Positions 1,163-39,454 of a DNA stretch of 64,000 nt are shown here, in pieces; position 1 is the stretch's first letter, and each line of letters begins with the position of its first letter. The position numbers were made by a program, and so were the translations under genes. The stretch spans positions 17,593 through 81,592 of the forward strand of contig CALXHF010000001.1 of NCBI GenBank assembly GCA_944388035.1, read 5' to 3'. The notes below the pieces were generated by a model that searched no databases, was not told where the DNA came from, and saw only the letters and a program-made list of their open reading frames with translations. The DNA comes from an uncultured Clostridia bacterium. GTDB taxonomy: Bacteria; Bacillota; Clostridia; TANB77; CAG-508.

Positions 1163-1350
1163 TGGCTGCTAAGATTACAGAAAAGATTTTAGAACCTACA
1201 AAAATTTATGTAGGTTCTAAATTTTTATTAAAAATAAAAGTAGAAGATGATTTTGCCTTTACTAAGCAATTAAAAACAGAAGATAATAAAAACTTCTTAA
1301 CAGAAGATAATAAATTAATCTTAACTGAGTGGGGTGAGGAAAATGGATGA
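1144..1350 (+). CDS. Phage hypothetical protein
   Basis: 68-aa ORF with a 4-nt overlap onto the previous gene (coupled translation). Lies in the phage late cluster. Confidence 0.3.
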   Translation: MEEYNIMAAKITEKILEPTKIYVGSKFLLKIKVEDDFAFTKQLKTEDNKNFLTEDNKLILTEWGEENG

Positions 1351-1699
1351 ATCAGAAGGAACAAAAGTGAGTGAGTTAGTAGAAGCAACAGAAGTGGACA
1401 GCGAAGATATAGCAATGATTGTGCAAGGAAATGCAAACAAGAAAATCAAGATTACTAATTTATTAAAAGAAACTAGAGCTTTAGTAATAACAGATGAAGA
1501 AATTCCAGCAAACACAGACTACACAATACCAATTCCATATCTGCCAGGAACTCTCAAAATTTATTGCGAAGGAAGTAAATTAATCTATGATGAAGAATAC
1601 ATAGAAAGAAATTCTAGTTCTGGGAAAAGTACGACTATACAATTTAAAGACTGGAACGTTCCAGAAAATACAAAATTAGAATTTATTGTTAGAAAGTAG
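1334..1699 (+). CDS. Phage protein with the C-terminal 'KDW[ND]VP.N..LEFIVR[KS]' module
   Basis: 121-aa ORF. Its C-terminal ~60 aa are homologous to the C-terminus of ORF 2943..3320 (EIPANTDYT...KDWNVPENTKLEFIVRK versus EIPQNTNYT...KDWDVPANSNLEFIVRS). Confidence 0.4.
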   Translation: MRKMDESEGTKVSELVEATEVDSEDIAMIVQGNANKKIKITNLLKETRALVITDEEIPANTDYTIPIPYLPGTLKIYCEGSKLIYDEEYIERNSSSGKSTTIQFKDWNVPENTKLEFIVRK

Positions 1700-1711
1700 G
1701 AGGAACTTCAA

Positions 1712-2053
1712 ATGAATTTAATTAGAGGTGATACGCTAAATTTAAAATTTAAAAGAATTGATAGAAACGGCGAAGTAATAAAAGAAAAGCCAGAAAAATT
1801 ATTCTTTACTGTAAAAAACAGTTATTATGATAAAAATTATTTGTTCCAGAAAAGTTTAGAAAAAAACACCATTTCTTATGATGAAAATGATAATTATTAT
1901 AGATTTACAATAGAACCAGAAGATACAAATACTTTAGTTTTTGGAAAATATGTCTACGATATAGAAGTTGTAAATCTTGGTACTGTAAAAACTATAGCAA
2001 AAGGAACTTTAGAAATAGAAGAAGAAGTAACTTTTGCAGAAAATGAGGTTTAA
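1712..2053 (+). CDS. Phage hypothetical protein
   Basis: 113-aa ORF with RBS aggagg 8 nt upstream. Lies in the phage cluster. Confidence 0.35.
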   Translation: MNLIRGDTLNLKFKRIDRNGEVIKEKPEKLFFTVKNSYYDKNYLFQKSLEKNTISYDENDNYYRFTIEPEDTNTLVFGKYVYDIEVVNLGTVKTIAKGTLEIEEEVTFAENEV

Positions 2054-2055
2054 AA

Positions 2056-2289
2056 TTGGAAAATGAAGAAGAAATAGCTGTTTTAGAAGAAGAAACAGAA
2101 AAAGAAATAGTAACTTTTGAGGAAGATGCTAAAGTTGGAACAAATAATTATGAAAAGTTGTTAAACAAACCTAAAATAAACAATATAGAATTAATAGGTA
2201 ACAAGAAAAGTAAAGATTTAAAAATACAAGATGAAATGGAAGTTTTATCTAATCTAGAGATAGAAGAAATGATTAATAATTTTATTTAG
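2056..2289 (+). CDS. Phage hypothetical acidic protein
   Basis: 77-aa Glu-rich ORF packed tightly against its neighbours. Confidence 0.3.
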   Translation: MENEEEIAVLEEETEKEIVTFEEDAKVGTNNYEKLLNKPKINNIELIGNKKSKDLKIQDEMEVLSNLEIEEMINNFI

Positions 2290-2301
2290 GAGGATTTTAA
2301 A

Positions 2302-2937
2302 ATGAAAAAATTTATAGATGATAATGGTTTATTATATTTCTTACAAAAGATAGTTAATGTTTTTGTTAAAAAAGACGGGAACAAAGTTTTAAGTGATAAC
2401 AACTATACAACAGAAGAAAAAAATAAATTAGCAGGACTAAATAATTACACACTACCTAAAGCAAGTTCTAATAGTCTTGGAGGAATTAAAGTAGGTGCAG
2501 GACTAGAAGTTTCTGAAGATGGAACTTTAAGTGCAACAGGTGGAGGAACAGCAGATGCTGTAGATTGGGATAATGTTTTAAATAAGCCAACGAAAGTTTC
2601 TGAGTTCCAAAATGATAGTGGTTTCCAGACAGCCACTCAGGTGCAAACAGCAATACAAAATGCAACACAAGATTTTGCAACAGAAGAATATGTAAACAAT
2701 AAAGTTAGTACTGCTTATAAATATAAAGGAAGTGTTGCAAATCAATCTGCATTGCCAGATAATGCTGAAGCAGGAGCTGTCTATAATCTAGAAGATACAG
2801 GTATGAACGTTGCTTGGGACGGAACTAAGTGGGACAACTTGGGTATGATAATTGATTTAAGCGGATATGTAAAAGAGGAAGATTTGAAAGCGGTTACAAA
2901 TCAAGAAATAGATGTTATAGTTTCTAGCGTTGCTTAA
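2302..2937 (+). CDS. Phage tail fiber protein
   Basis: RBS aggagg. The N-terminus MKKFIDDNGLLYFLQKIVNVFVKKDGNKVLSDNNYT...EKNKL and the motif VDWDNVLNKP are typical of Firmicutes phage tail fibers. The N-terminal module is duplicated in the next ORF. Confidence 0.55.
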   Translation: MKKFIDDNGLLYFLQKIVNVFVKKDGNKVLSDNNYTTEEKNKLAGLNNYTLPKASSNSLGGIKVGAGLEVSEDGTLSATGGGTADAVDWDNVLNKPTKVSEFQNDSGFQTATQVQTAIQNATQDFATEEYVNNKVSTAYKYKGSVANQSALPDNAEAGAVYNLEDTGMNVAWDGTKWDNLGMIIDLSGYVKEEDLKAVTNQEIDVIVSSVA

Positions 2938-2942
2938 GTGAG

Positions 2943-3320
2943 GTGGAGAATATGACAAAATATATAGATAATAACGGTTTAAAATATTTTCTACAGAAAA
3001 TAATAAATGTCTTTGTAAAAAAAGACGGGAACAAAGTTTTAAGTGATAATAACTATACAGATATAGAAAAAAGCAAATTAGCAAGTTTAAAAAATATAAC
3101 CTTTTCACACACGAAAATTTTAACAACACAAGAAATACCACAAAACACAAATTACACAGTGCCTCAATATACACTTGGAGATAATTCTCTAAGTGTTATT
3201 TTTGAAGGTTGTAAATTAATTAAAGATGTAAATTACCTAGAAGTAGATACAACTCATATTAAATTTAAGGACTGGGATGTACCTGCTAATAGTAATTTAG
3301 AATTTATAGTAAGAAGTTAG
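2943..3320 (+). CDS. Mosaic tail-fiber-related protein (N-terminal module of 2302 plus C-terminal module of 1334)
   Basis: The N-terminal ~50 aa and the underlying ~36-nt core (aaaaaagacgggaacaaagttttaagtgataa) are near-identical to ORF 2302. The C-terminus is homologous to ORF 1334. Confidence 0.45.
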   Translation: MENMTKYIDNNGLKYFLQKIINVFVKKDGNKVLSDNNYTDIEKSKLASLKNITFSHTKILTTQEIPQNTNYTVPQYTLGDNSLSVIFEGCKLIKDVNYLEVDTTHIKFKDWDVPANSNLEFIVRS

Positions 3321-3720: not shown

Positions 3721-3737
3721 AAAAGGAGTAAATAGAT

Positions 3738-3839
3738 ATGAAAATGAAATGTAAAATCCTTATGGCTGTAGAGAGAGAGAGAGAGAGAGAGCTACAGTTT
3801 AATAAAATAAAAAAGATAGGAGGTGAAGATAATGTCTAA
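3738..3839 (+). CDS. Small ORF containing a (GA)10-11 microsatellite (MKMKCKILMAV-(ER)n-...); candidate repeat-number-dependent leader or contingency ORF
   Basis: Strong RBS aaggag 9 nt upstream of the ATG. (AG)11 at 3770-3791 is flanked by the inverted repeat ctgtag / ctacag. The frame and stop downstream of the repeat depend on unit number. A paralogous element is at 48978. Confidence 0.2.
   Translation: MKMKCKILMAVERERERELQFNKIKKIGGEDNV
3770..3791. repeat. (AG)11 dinucleotide microsatellite flanked by the 6-bp inverted repeat ctgtag / ctacag
   Basis: Read directly: gctgtag(ag)n ctacag. Confidence 0.9.
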
Positions 3840-4188
3840 ACCTCTTATTTTAGAATTGAAAGAAAAAGTTGAAAATTTAGACACAAATATAACAAATTTA
3901 TTACTTACAGGTAGTACAGGAAACAAAACTTTAAATGATAGTTATTTAAATTACAAAAAATTAATTTTTAAAGTTAGAAACACCGAAACCTTACCTAAAA
4001 CAGGAATTGTTGTAATCCCTGTTGAGAGCATATCTAATGGAGAAATATATGTAGTTTCTTCTTTTCAAGATGCTTCATATCATATTTCGGCAAGTATACG
4101 TTTTATAGATGAAAATACAGTTAACATTTCTGAAATTAAAGATACAGGATGGGCTTTTGGCAGTCTTGTAATAGATGGAATAAATTAA
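3832..4188 (+). CDS. Phage hypothetical protein
   Basis: ATG at 3832 with RBS aggagg 9 nt upstream. The track's GTG at 3823 is less likely. Confidence 0.35.
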   Translation: MSKPLILELKEKVENLDTNITNLLLTGSTGNKTLNDSYLNYKKLIFKVRNTETLPKTGIVVIPVESISNGEIYVVSSFQDASYHISASIRFIDENTVNISEIKDTGWAFGSLVIDGIN

Positions 4189-4211: not shown

Positions 4212-4529
4212 ATGATGAATGAAATTATAAAAATAATTTTAAATTGGGCAATACCAATAATATTAACAGGAATATTTGGTTTTTTAGTAAAAATAATAAA
4301 AGACAATAAAACTATGAAAAACAGTATGCTGAGCTTAATTAGAAGCCAGATAGTAGGAAAATGCGAAACTTATATGGCTCAAGGATTTTTACCAGAGTAT
4401 GCTAGATATTGTTTAGAAGAATTATTTAAGCAATATCAAACTTTAGGAGGAAATCACGGCGTAGAAGCACTGGTAAATAAATGCTTCGAGTTACCACCAT
4501 CAAAAAAGGAGGAAGAAAATGATGAATAA
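4212..4529 (+). CDS. Putative holin-like small membrane protein
   Basis: One strong TM helix (IIKIILNWAIPIILTGIFGFLVKII). Sits immediately upstream of the endolysin-like gene and overlaps it. The start codon is uncertain. Confidence 0.3.
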   Translation: MMNEIIKIILNWAIPIILTGIFGFLVKIIKDNKTMKNSMLSLIRSQIVGKCETYMAQGFLPEYARYCLEELFKQYQTLGGNHGVEALVNKCFELPPSKKEEENDE

Positions 4530-5916
4530 TAATAAGAAAAAGAAAATAATTGTAATACTTGCAGCTATTGTAGTTGGAATTTTAAGTGGATTTGGATTTT
4601 ATAATGCAAACAAAGATAATTCTACAGAAGAAATAGTAGGAAGTGCTGTAGAAGAATTAAAAGATTATATTAGCACTTATGAAATGTCTAAAGAAGAAAT
4701 AGAAGAATTGCCTTCTACTCAAATAGTAGAGCAAACAGAAGAACAAGAAGAAGCAGTAGGAGAAGAACAGGAAGTAGAAAGCGAAGCCTTTGAACAACAG
4801 GGAGAAATAGCATATGAAGGTTCTAGTGAATATCCTAGTGTGAGTTTAGGAAATTATACAGGACTTACATATTACAACCAAACAGACAGTAGATGGGCAA
4901 GTCATCAATATAGTTCTGTAGGAGATAGTTCTCAAACAATAGGAACAAGTGGTTGTGGACCTACAAGTGCTGCAATGGTAGTAACTGCTGTAAAAGGAAC
5001 AATAACTCCACCAGAAATGGGAGATTTATTTGTTCAATATGGATATAGGAGTGCTAATAATGGAACTTATTGGAGTGCTTTTAGGTGGGTAGCAGATGTT
5101 TTTGATATTGGATATCAAGAGTGTTCTAGTTTAGATACTGCTGTAGATTTAGTAAGAAACAATAACTATGTAATAGTTAGTTGTGCAAATGGTTTATTTA
5201 CAACAGGAGGACATTTTATAGTAATCGTTGGTATAGATGGAGATACACTTAAGATTTACGACCCATATTTATATAGTGGAAAATTTGACACATCTACAAG
5301 AAGAGGCAAAGTAACAGTAAGTGGAAATACTGTGTATTGCAGTATAGAAAATTTTAGAAATTATGCAAATTATAGAGGCTTTTTTGCTTATCAACATAGC
5401 GGAAATGTACAAGAAAATACAGGCAATGTAACAACTTCTACATATACAAGATATGTTGCAACAAATAGTAAAAACTTAAATGTTAGAAGTGGAGCAGGAA
5501 CAGGATATAGAGTAATAGGAAGTTTAAGAAAAGGAACTGCTGTAACAGTTGCAGAAACAAATGGAAGTTGGTCTAGAATAACAAGTCCAGTAAGTGGTTG
5601 GGTAAGCAACTCTTACTTATCATCTAGTTATGTAAGTTCTACAATAACTATAACTGGATATAGAACAGGAAAATACAAAGTAACAAGAGTTTCTAGAAAC
5701 AGTGTGCTATGTGTAAGGAGCGGACCTTCTACAAGATACAGTAGAAAAACATACAGACAACTAACAGCTAATGCTAGAAGTCAAAACCGAGCAAATGGCA
5801 ATTACTATGCAAATGGTTATAAAAATGGAGTAGTATTTACAGTATCTAGAGTATCTGGAAACTGGGGATTAACTCCAAGTGGATGGGTATGTTTAGATTA
5901 TTGCACGAAACAATAA
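4519..5916 (+). CDS. Endolysin-like cell-wall hydrolase: N-terminal membrane anchor, peptidase C39-like cysteine peptidase domain, two SH3b repeats
   Basis: Motifs NQTDSRWASHQY...GTSGCGPTSAAMVV (C39-like). Two SH3b-like repeats (NLNVRSGAGTGYRVIGSLRKGTAVTV...WSRI and LCVRSGPSTRYS...GWVCLDYC). Lies at the distal end of the phage cluster. Confidence 0.5.
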   Translation: MMNNNKKKKIIVILAAIVVGILSGFGFYNANKDNSTEEIVGSAVEELKDYISTYEMSKEEIEELPSTQIVEQTEEQEEAVGEEQEVESEAFEQQGEIAYEGSSEYPSVSLGNYTGLTYYNQTDSRWASHQYSSVGDSSQTIGTSGCGPTSAAMVVTAVKGTITPPEMGDLFVQYGYRSANNGTYWSAFRWVADVFDIGYQECSSLDTAVDLVRNNNYVIVSCANGLFTTGGHFIVIVGIDGDTLKIYDPYLYSGKFDTSTRRGKVTVSGNTVYCSIENFRNYANYRGFFAYQHSGNVQENTGNVTTSTYTRYVATNSKNLNVRSGAGTGYRVIGSLRKGTAVTVAETNGSWSRITSPVSGWVSNSYLSSSYVSSTITITGYRTGKYKVTRVSRNSVLCVRSGPSTRYSRKTYRQLTANARSQNRANGNYYANGYKNGVVFTVSRVSGNWGLTPSGWVCLDYCTKQ

Positions 5917-6029: not shown

Positions 6030-6449
6030 TTATTTTCTCGTTTTGTCAAGATTTAATGTATCTTTTAAAGCTTTTTGCAATAATTGTGAAAAATTAATAT
6101 TTTCTTTTTCAGCCATAGTATTTAACCAAGCTGGAATAGATAAAGTTTTCTTAACGGATTTATTTTCATATTTCTTTTTGTGTTCCTCTAAATTTATAGT
6201 TACAAAAGAAATTATTTGATTGTCTTCTAATTTAATATTTTTTATATCAGTAGTGCATTTTGGATATTCTTCCAAATCTTCAAGATATAATCCCATAGCT
6301 TCTTTGGCATTTTCCATAGCTTCTGCTAAAGTTTTTCCATCAGAAAAACAACCTTCTAAGTCAACAAATTCAACCCAATATTGATTATCTTCATATGTGA
6401 AGATAGCAGGGTACGTTAACAACACTTCCTTTTTCATATATTTATACAC
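6030..6449 (-). CDS. hicB: HicB-family antitoxin (UPF0150-like)
   Basis: 139-aa ORF with a HicB-like N-terminal domain (LTYPAIFTYEDNQYWVEFVDLEGCFSDGKTLAEAMENAKEAMGLYLE) and a C-terminal DNA-binding tail. Lies downstream of hicA. Confidence 0.6.
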   Translation of the reverse strand: MYKYMKKEVLLTYPAIFTYEDNQYWVEFVDLEGCFSDGKTLAEAMENAKEAMGLYLEDLEEYPKCTTDIKNIKLEDNQIISFVTINLEEHKKKYENKSVKKTLSIPAWLNTMAEKENINFSQLLQKALKDTLNLDKTRK

Positions 6450-38700: not shown

Positions 38701-39278
38701 TATAAATACTATTGATTTAAAAGAGCTAGATGAACAAATGCAAACAAATGGTGATGATGAAGCTTTAGAATTAATAAAACAAAATACAAAACCAAAATTC
38801 CAAGATGGTCAAAATGTAAAATATGCAGGTATAATTACTTCTATAAAAAAGAAATACACTAAAAATAATAAAATAATGGCATTTGTAACAATTGAAGATT
38901 TATATGGTACAGCAGAAGTCATTGTATTTGAAAATGCATATTTAAAAGCAGGGAAAAGTTTAGTAGAAGAAAATATTGTTTTAGTAGACCGGTAGATTAA
39001 GTATTAGAGAAGATGATACGACAACTATTATTGCAAATGAGATTAAAGATTTTGGAGAACAAAAACAAAGAATATTAACTTTGGATATAACTAATTTAGA
39101 CGAATCACATAAAGACAAATTACGTGGAGCAATATGTTATTTTAATGGTGATAAAAATAATATAAATGTTCAGGTAAAAGTTGGAGAGGAATTAAAACCT
39201 TGTGGGCAGATGTATTTAACTGAAGATATATTAAATTTCTTTAAAAATTTAATAGGAGCAGAAAATGTTAAAGTTTAA
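35773..39278 (+). CDS. dnaE: DNA polymerase III alpha subunit DnaE, read through two extra bases (37303 in ...CATGCATGC-C-GGA; 38990 in GAC-C-GGT)
   Basis: PHP domain (MSKFVHLHIHSEYSLLDGA). The polymerase core and OB fold span three frames. Skipping the two bases joins them into a ~1167-aa DnaE. For site 1 the inserted base could alternatively be T37300 (HAAGVV versus HACGVV). Confidence 0.75.
37303..37303 (+). other. Extra base site 1 in dnaE (TGC-C-GGA; alternatively T37300)
   Basis: See that feature. Confidence 0.5.
38990..38990 (+). other. Extra sense-strand C site 2 in dnaE (GAC-C-GGT)
   Basis: See that feature. Confidence 0.6.
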
Positions 39279-39454
39279 AAGTTGCACAACAAAACTACTA
39301 AAAATTGCACAATAAAATGCTTAAAAAGTGTATATTAAAATCATTAAAAAATGTATATTGGCAAAAAGGACCTAATTTTTTAGGTCTTTTAGTATTTTTC
39401 TTGACATTTTCTATAGCTATTGATAATATATAATTACTAAATTGGGAGGAAAAA

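Follow-up and report, generated by a model that had tools for sequence, protein, structure and literature searches.

Most documented cases of phase variation through simple sequence repeats (SSRs) come from pathogens such as Neisseria, Haemophilus, Campylobacter, Helicobacter, and mycoplasmas. Among the described systems, the closest to the one considered here is that of the pil1 and pil3 loci of Streptococcus gallolyticus, a Firmicute in which a (GCAGA)n leader-peptide attenuator was proven by mutagenesis (Danne et al., 2014; PMC3894217). Expression is high when the stop of the leader lies within or next to a hairpin and low when it lies at least 28 nucleotides (nt) upstream; mutation of the leader ATG, an added stop, and mutation of the terminator all behave as predicted (PMC3894217). 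We describe a related arrangement in a 64,000-nt stretch of DNA from an uncultured Clostridia bacterium (contig CALXHF010000001.1), referred to below as the window. Two short open reading frames (ORFs) in it are built around AG dinucleotide repeats; copy 1 lies in a prophage end and copy 2 in the bacterial chromosome.

Attenuation of the Escherichia coli pyrBI and trp operons, and coupling through hairpins over a Shine–Dalgarno (SD) sequence, have metabolic signals as inputs (ribosome stalling, RNA polymerase pausing). In these systems, as proposed for the window, upstream translation opens a structure that blocks initiation (copy 1) or prevents formation of a terminator (copy 2), but the input here would be a heritable and reversible change in repeat length. 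Attenuation at trp is also discussed in the S. gallolyticus work (PMC3894217). Genes for outer-membrane proteins of Helicobacter pylori carry dinucleotide repeats in their 5′ coding regions, such as the CT repeats of oipA (PMC10564699). In Clostridioides difficile, a clostridial relative, cwpV and flgB are under recombinase-made invertible DNA switches that act through termination (see also PMC12360218). These resemble the present elements in the stochastic ON/OFF control of a surface structure and in premature termination in a leader, whereas they depend on inversion by site-specific recombinases, with neither an SSR nor a leader peptide.

Our results indicate that both elements are probably slipped-strand phase-variation switches located in a translated leader ORF. 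The window has a GC content of about 27%; its first 6 kb or so are the prophage end and the remainder is bacterial chromosome. It contains two exact AG tracts, (AG)11 in copy 1 and (AG)10 in copy 2, and a 12-nt AG probe with up to one mismatch gave 11 overlapping matches, all within these tracts, with 0.36 expected from shuffles. No other di- to hexanucleotide repeat of similar length and no long homopolymer was found elsewhere in the 64 kb. Each tract stands inside a short ORF with a strong SD, and the two copies align in register, with TAAAATCCTT on the 5′ side of the repeat and CTA-NNN-TTTAAT-N-AAATAAA on the 3′ side. The two small ORFs with shared flanks that an earlier, sequence-only reading of this DNA had described are thus confirmed. 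The same reading drew attention to the alternating Glu-Arg peptide, probably a mere by-product of the AG unit, and to a bracket formed by the inverted repeat CTGTAG/CTACAG. This bracket is present in copy 1 but absent from copy 2 and from many family members; lacking conservation across the family, it was discarded as a functional element and is probably incidental.

In the mechanism that we propose, the gain or loss of one AG unit would move ribosomes among the three frames. Two of the frames would end a few codons past the repeat, where the conserved TTTAAT-N-AAATAA supplies their stops, and the third (ON) would stay open up to an RNA hairpin that keeps the following gene from being expressed. 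At copy 2, a ribosome in the ON frame would end on a terminator hairpin and prevent its folding, giving read-through into a pilin-like gene; in an OFF frame it would leave some 50–75 nt earlier, and the transcript would terminate. At copy 1, which has the ON count in the window (n = 11 AG units), the ribosome would melt a hairpin over the SD and ATG of the next gene and terminate 5 nt past that ATG, resulting in translational coupling. We infer slippage within the population, and its effects on transcription or translation, from the anatomy, the comparative data, and the precedent.

The layout of copy 2 is that of pil1: a promoter, an SD-preceded leader ORF, a repeat unit that is not a multiple of three, a terminator, and a leader stop that falls either in the hairpin or upstream of it. 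At n = 10 the leader encodes 18 amino acids (aa; MIKTLKILDTLRERERES) and ends in the +1 frame (AGC TAA, stop at 49032–49034). Copy 2 therefore reads as OFF in the window, and n = 9 or 12 would be ON. After the repeat, the ON frame is open for 26 codons (P = 0.04 in shuffles). A terminator scan gave three overlapping matches, all on the single copy-2 hairpin, against 0.0 expected; the predicted free energy (dG) of this hairpin is −27.9 kcal/mol (z = −7), and the OFF stops, at 49032 and 49039, lie 43–50 nt ahead of it. When the whole leader was folded, the terminator was dominant and no alternative antiterminator was predicted. No promoter-like site was scored between the terminator and the pilin-like gene.

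These data bear on the idea that the repeat works as RNA or DNA and not through the reading frame, by binding a protein or the 16S rRNA 3′ end, by forming H-DNA or by altering promoter geometry, with graded tuning by length. (GAA)n tracts upstream of the vlhA promoters of Mycoplasma gallisepticum control transcription (PMC6258824), and homopurine tracts can form triplex structures. However, the tract here follows the promoter and is part of a translated ORF, it has no pairing partner in the whole-leader fold, and no Rfam family matched the window at gathering thresholds (ARAGORN likewise found no tRNA or tmRNA). Action at this level would also leave the three-frame stop architecture without a role, and we regard it as highly improbable.

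At copy 1, the leader with n = 11 reads MKMKCKILMAVERERERELQFNKIKKIGGEDNV and is predicted as a 33-aa gene in public contigs. The earlier observation that at this count the ORF reaches the start of the next gene was correct: its TAA (3837–3839) overlaps the ATG at 3832, the overlap being ATGTCTAA at 3832–3839. Both this ATG and its SD (GGAGG, 3819–3823) are base-paired in a predicted hairpin of −16.7 kcal/mol (z = −5.3 vs. shuffles), which makes this the most structured of the 44 gene starts in the window (mean −3.4, standard deviation 3.0). Both OFF-frame stops (3800 and 3808) precede the hairpin. Neither a promoter nor a terminator-like site was found between 3300 and 4300, and the locus lies inside a phage operon. 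Copy 1 thus lacks the terminator of the attenuator class and has the features of translational coupling, namely a stop/start overlap and a paired downstream SD and ATG. A phase-variable leader and a translational-coupling switch had been offered as alternatives for this architecture; the comparative data support both, the former for copy 2 and the latter for copy 1.

The hairpin is retained in the phage relatives L011, L034, L036, L037, and L047 (−16.6 to −17.8). In L037 a repeat-free upstream ORF of 15 codons (MIKLIKSFVGGEDNV) terminates at the overlapping TAA found in copy 1; in L047 the repeat is degenerate and held in the coupling frame, and its upstream ORF of 28 codons ends at that same TAA. 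L034, L035, L036, L011, and L039 carry only 4–6 AG units, in OFF frames. Because the relatives retain the stop/start overlap and the hairpin while their upstream ORFs differ, these two features are the conserved core. In the phage lineage of copy 1, the long AG tract seems to have been added and would make the coupling switchable.

The gene that follows copy 1 is located between the tail genes and the lysis genes and encodes 118 aa. It had been called a phage structural gene, a role that is undemonstrated for this late gene, which resisted annotation: no Pfam or NCBIfam match was found, its PHROG match was weak and to an entry without a function, and among 5.8 billion proteins the only homologue was the protein itself. 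A single-sequence AlphaFold2 (AF2) model had a predicted local distance difference test (pLDDT) value of 44 and was unusable. Its first 12 residues (MSKPLILELKEK) are conserved, and the sequence that encodes them is also the 3′ arm of the SD hairpin. The body of the gene occurs in four unrelated forms of 100–127 aa in related phages (3832–4188 in the window; L011, L037, and L047), and the three variant forms could not be annotated either. The gene thus behaves as a hypervariable cassette gene.

To find relatives of the two copies, public collections were scanned with the pattern AGAGAGAGAGAGCTANNNTTTAAT. The scan gave 22 genome-contig stretches, 21 of them in metagenome-assembled genomes (MAGs) of uncultured gut Clostridia or Clostridium, where a single MAG contributed as many as five, as well as nine metagenome contigs and one viral contig. 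Scans with the junction sequence of copy 1 added five viral contigs (six in all). One match, L029 from Rubritalea, was rejected as due to chance, having no SD, leader, or pilin-like gene. The cassette is known in total from about 40 loci in uncultured gut Clostridia MAGs, metagenomes, and related phages, and these loci display a common anatomy, its conservation across the family, a marked asymmetry between frames, and repeat numbers that differ between loci. The layout consists of an SD, an ATG, 8–14 codons ending in ..K.(L/V)..(V/L), (AG)n with n = 4–26, and CTA(C/T/A)A(C/T)TTTAAT(G/A)AA, with CTAyAyTTTAAT as the short consensus after the repeat. Most of the chromosomal members have a promoter-like motif, TTG(A/C)AA-17-TAtAAT, 40–60 nt upstream of the leader ATG. 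A pilin-like ORF (GITLIALVITIIVLLILAG; GITL(I/V)AL...) follows 30–500 nt downstream on the same strand in 26 of 28 chromosomal copies, a count that leaves out L018, where only 54 nt are present after the repeat.

The three frames after the repeat are not equivalent. We defined the +0 (ON) frame as the one that reads L-(H/Y/T/Q)-F-N-(E/K). The +2 frame stops after two codons in every family member, at the TAA within TTTAAT, and the +1 frame stops after 0–15 codons, whereas the +0 frame is open for 18–52 codons. For 12 divergent representatives the values were 18–52 (+0), 0–11 (+1), and 2 (+2). In mononucleotide shuffles of each segment, the openness of +0 had P = 0.001–0.14 per locus; the product over the 12 representatives, about 1e-19, overstates the significance, as the loci are homologous and not independent. 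After residue five, the +0 peptides of different groups show no relationship to each other, which suggests that an open frame, rather than a particular peptide, is what has been conserved.

It is quite improbable that the tracts are mutational debris, that is, neutral microsatellites that came along when a 5′ leader segment was duplicated. A neutral sequence at 27% GC would not keep a frame of 18–52 codons open, and every tract is preceded by an SD and ATG and followed by three frames, of which two stop early and the third is open exactly to a hairpin. Moreover, tracts of 10–26 units persist across many diverged loci, and the 64 kb hold no other long SSR. What speaks for neutrality is that several independent samples share the same n and that some phage relatives have short, interrupted, or degenerate tracts.

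A hairpin with a T-tract (dG −9 to −31 kcal/mol) was present between the leader and the pilin-like gene in 21 loci, and in 19 of them the +0 stop falls inside the hairpin, at the end of the 5′ arm, in the loop, or in the first bases of the 3′ arm. In the exceptions, the stop is 9 nt upstream of the hairpin (L028) or beyond it (L026). Within one locus group the stem keeps its pairing through one-sided and two-sided substitutions; other groups have unrelated hairpin sequences at the same position.

The small ORFs might instead be genes in their own right that encode phase-variable small peptides (a toxin, a signal, or a membrane peptide), with the neighboring gene expressed independently. The chromosomal copies, with promoter, SD, ORF, and terminator, have a complete gene layout, gene callers predict the 33-aa ORF of copy 1, and the ON-frame tails are conserved within paralogue groups (e.g., four 43-aa LHFNE...IARLNL tails in the MAG BRZ_HT bin69). 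However, the encoded hairpin arms explain part of that conservation, and between groups only LxFN(E/K) is shared. A stop at the hairpin apex in 19/21 loci is unexpected for an ordinary gene terminator, the phage leader tail (GGEDNV) simply translates the SD region of the next gene, no promoter-like site was scored in the window between the terminator and the pilin-like gene, and in six loci the leader frame is directly continuous with the pilin-like ORF. Taken with these points, independent small genes seem unlikely.

In these fusions, L022, L024, and L032 continue in the +0 frame into a pilin-like ORF of 312–468 aa, and L020, L043, and L044 continue into a pilin-like ORF in the +1 frame. The fusions would link the cassette functionally to expression of the pilin-like gene, and they show what reads as a second wiring, the classical SSR within a 5′ coding region. 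In these six loci only, the repeat is part of the regulated ORF, as in H. pylori oipA, with a dinucleotide tract in an N-terminal leader and a slipped-strand frame switch. In the window, unlike oipA, the repeat of each copy is in a separate upstream ORF, and the taxon and the protein family differ as well. As a separate observation, L020, L043, and L044 have GC-rich palindromes (e.g., GGGGCACAGTGCTCTGTGCCC and GTAGGGGTCGGCGTCCTCGACGACCC) ahead of the leader promoter and in the long linker from leader to pilin-like gene; in an AT-rich genome, these look like repetitive extragenic palindromic (REP) or miniature inverted-repeat transposable element (MITE)-type elements.

The family shares with pil1/pil3 a promoter, an RBS-type start ahead of a leader ORF whose SSR is not a multiple of three, a T-tract terminator, a surface-appendage gene as presumed target, and the use of the same repeat at several loci per genome. 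In S. gallolyticus the repeat number differs between isolates; here it differs between assemblies, but many samples share one n. The differences are that the unit is AG with n = 4–26 versus GCAGA with n = 13–26, that at least five copies can occur per genome in hosts that are uncultured gut Clostridia, and that each presumed target is a single pilin-like gene whose N-terminus is type-IV-pilin-like, while pil1/pil3 are sortase-pilus operons. One frame of three is predicted from sequence to be ON here, in contrast to two of three in pil1. Unlike pil1/pil3, the cassette also occurs as an in-frame fusion and as a proposed prophage translational-coupling device without a terminator.

A comparison of repeat number across isolates, as the sequence-only reading had advised, gave a divided answer: n differs between orthologous loci, but several independent samples share the same n. 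At copy 1, n was 11 in the window and in seven public contigs, 10 in L007, and 16 in L004, where the N-terminus of the leader has diverged. At copy 2, n was 10 in the window, L010/L051, L052, and L053, 11 in L054, and 7 in L025. Other counts were 12 and 11 (L018 and L030), 15, 13, and 13 (L041, L042, and L045), 11, 26, and 10 (L020, L043, and L044), and, for paralogues of a single MAG, 14, 19, 17, and 17 (L017, L027, L031, and L033). As assembled, seven attenuator-type loci were ON and 16 were OFF, near the one third expected by chance. In the Logan contigs L005 and L007, the contig start lies exactly one 31-mer (8+22+1 and 10+20+1) ahead of the first base that follows the repeat, which hints at the branch of the de Bruijn graph that is expected when repeat lengths are mixed in a sample. 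A search for contigs that reach the repeat from upstream and end there, as evidence of such a branch, brought no new information.

Several points weigh against a slipped-strand switch at these loci. Antitermination by a ribosome requires that it follow RNA polymerase closely, which is not known to be general in Firmicutes, although it was demonstrated for pil1. The stop-in-hairpin geometry does not hold for L026 and L021, and all six direct-fusion loci were assembled OFF, for which the chance is (2/3)^6 = 0.09. The 118-aa gene may be expressed to some degree without coupling, because phage relatives with 4–6 AG units are in OFF frames and the gene has a strong SD of its own. Finally, the value of n is shared by several independent samples (four assemblies with 10 at copy 2, seven with 11 at copy 1); this may therefore reflect slow switching, recent relatedness of the strains, or selection for one of the states.

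The gene directly downstream of copy 2 encodes a protein of 470 aa and is the sole pilin-like gene of this type in the window. Its matches to PF07963 (N_methyl; 16.7 bits, with a cut-off of 21.2) and to GspG (E = 0.009) are both below threshold. The AF2 model, built from 37 sequences, is confident (pLDDT 85) and has a long N-terminal helix (residues 3–57 and 62–92) followed by a beta-rich domain, and a Foldseek search of the PDB with this model gave no significant match. The N-terminal motif is KG-ITLIA, with Ala and not Glu at +5, whereas the prepilin methylation motif has Gly at −1 and Glu at +5. Because of this residue, the protein is not a demonstrated type IV pilin, and on the model we consider it pilin-like in shape only. 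It belongs to a large uncharacterized surface-protein family with more than 7,800 metagenomic relatives, none of them with a Pfam domain. The orthologue in L025 is broken near an A7 run just ahead of GITLIAL, some 200–300 nt after the repeat; either a second site prone to frameshifts or an error in the assembly could account for this. The positions of the features of both copies are collected in Table 1.

Table 1. Positions in the window of the features that make up the two AG-repeat elements and of their presumed target genes
Feature	Position	Strand	Remarks
SD (AGGAG) of copy-1 leader	3724–3728	+	9 nt ahead of ATG; kept in all contigs with the prophage
Copy-1 leader ORF	3738–3839	+	33 codons at n = 11, the ON frame; TAA 3837–3839
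(AG)11 tract, proposed slippage-prone frame selector	3770–3791	+	ON needs n = 8, 11, 14, etc.
OFF-frame early stops of copy 1	3800–3810	+	TAA 3800–3802 (+2) and TAA 3808–3810 (+1), within conserved TTTAATAAAATAA
Predicted hairpin sequestering SD and ATG of the 118-aa gene	3813–3851	+	Leader stop in loop
118-aa prophage gene, presumed target of copy-1 switch	3832–4188	+	Last gene before the holin-like and endolysin genes
Sigma-70-like promoter of copy-2 leader	48905–48933	+	TTTACA, 17 nt, TAAAAT
Copy-2 leader ORF, present reading	48978–49034	+	18 codons, OFF frame; SD GAGGAG 48963–48968
(AG)10 tract of copy 2	49011–49030	+	ON needs n = 9, 12, etc.
ON-frame extension of copy-2 leader (LTFNEINNNKLNIDYNLKDSDKSLRN)	49031–49111	+	TAG 49109–49111, just 3′ of GAAA loop
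Intrinsic-terminator-like hairpin, proposed attenuator	49082–49132	+	Stem of about 20 bp with GAAA loop (49082–49129), then T6
Pilin-like gene, presumed target of copy-2 switch	49191–50603	+	470 aa; KGITLIALVITIIVLLILAG near N-terminus

The prophage end contains tail-protein PHROG matches, a holin-like gene, and a Peptidase_C39_2/SH3 endolysin gene (4519–5916), and no near match to these 6 kb was found among 50,697 deposited phages. Its tail module (1334–3320) is a mosaic: the proteins of 211 aa (2302–2937) and 125 aa (2943–3320) have near-identical N-termini, and a C-terminal FKDW.VP...LEFIVR motif is common to the 125-aa protein and one of 121 aa (1334–1699). This suggests exchangeable fibre or receptor-binding modules. 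Directly after the lysis genes, at the border of prophage and chromosome, there is a gene for a HicB-like antitoxin (6030–6449, minus strand).

Genes of the chromosomal part include those for Obg, dCMP deaminase, an acetyltransferase, DUF362, and TsaE. A 40-nt tandem repeat (TGAACAAAACAAATAAAAATAACAATTTTGTACAGTACAC; 2.2 copies, 89% matches) occupies 46531–46619, between obg and the gene for dCMP deaminase, and a separate 23-nt tandem array is found at 39275–39359. In tsaB (50752–51508, minus strand), an extra C near 51308 (GGACCT-C-GGTTCT) disrupts the GPGSFTG motif and splits the gene into ORFs of 72 and 136 aa; the same split gene calls occur in the independent assembly L010. As tsaB is normally essential, this could be a real frameshift or pseudogene, a recoding event, or an assembly error common to both.

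Literature searches revealed no second organism with an SSR leader-peptide attenuator beyond S. gallolyticus and no precedent for SSR-driven phase variation of phage tail or late genes; the SSR leader-peptide attenuator is also missing from a 2025 review on phase variation. New with respect to the precedent are the dinucleotide unit, the multi-copy family in uncultured gut Clostridia, the three proposed wirings, and the presumed capture by a prophage. A more tentative proposal, which we hold to be possible though rather doubtful, unites these: a single portable cassette of a gut Clostridia lineage, made up of SD, ATG, short N-terminus, (AG)n, and an LxFNE segment that contains the off-frame stops, would exist in three wirings (in-frame fusion, terminator attenuator, and SD-hairpin coupling) and would have been captured by a temperate phage of the same hosts, which might use it to switch stochastically a hypervariable late gene at the tail/lysis junction, as bet-hedging by phage or lysogen populations in, for example, host range or superinfection behavior.

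If the switch operates as proposed, leader-peptide attenuation would be a recurrent, multi-copy strategy of abundant uncultured gut Clostridia. It would control a very large uncharacterized family of pilin-like surface proteins, and a prophage would use the same switch. The cassette offers a sequence signature that would predict surface-antigen heterogeneity directly from metagenomes, and simple constructs with which the coupling of ribosome and polymerase may be probed in Clostridia.

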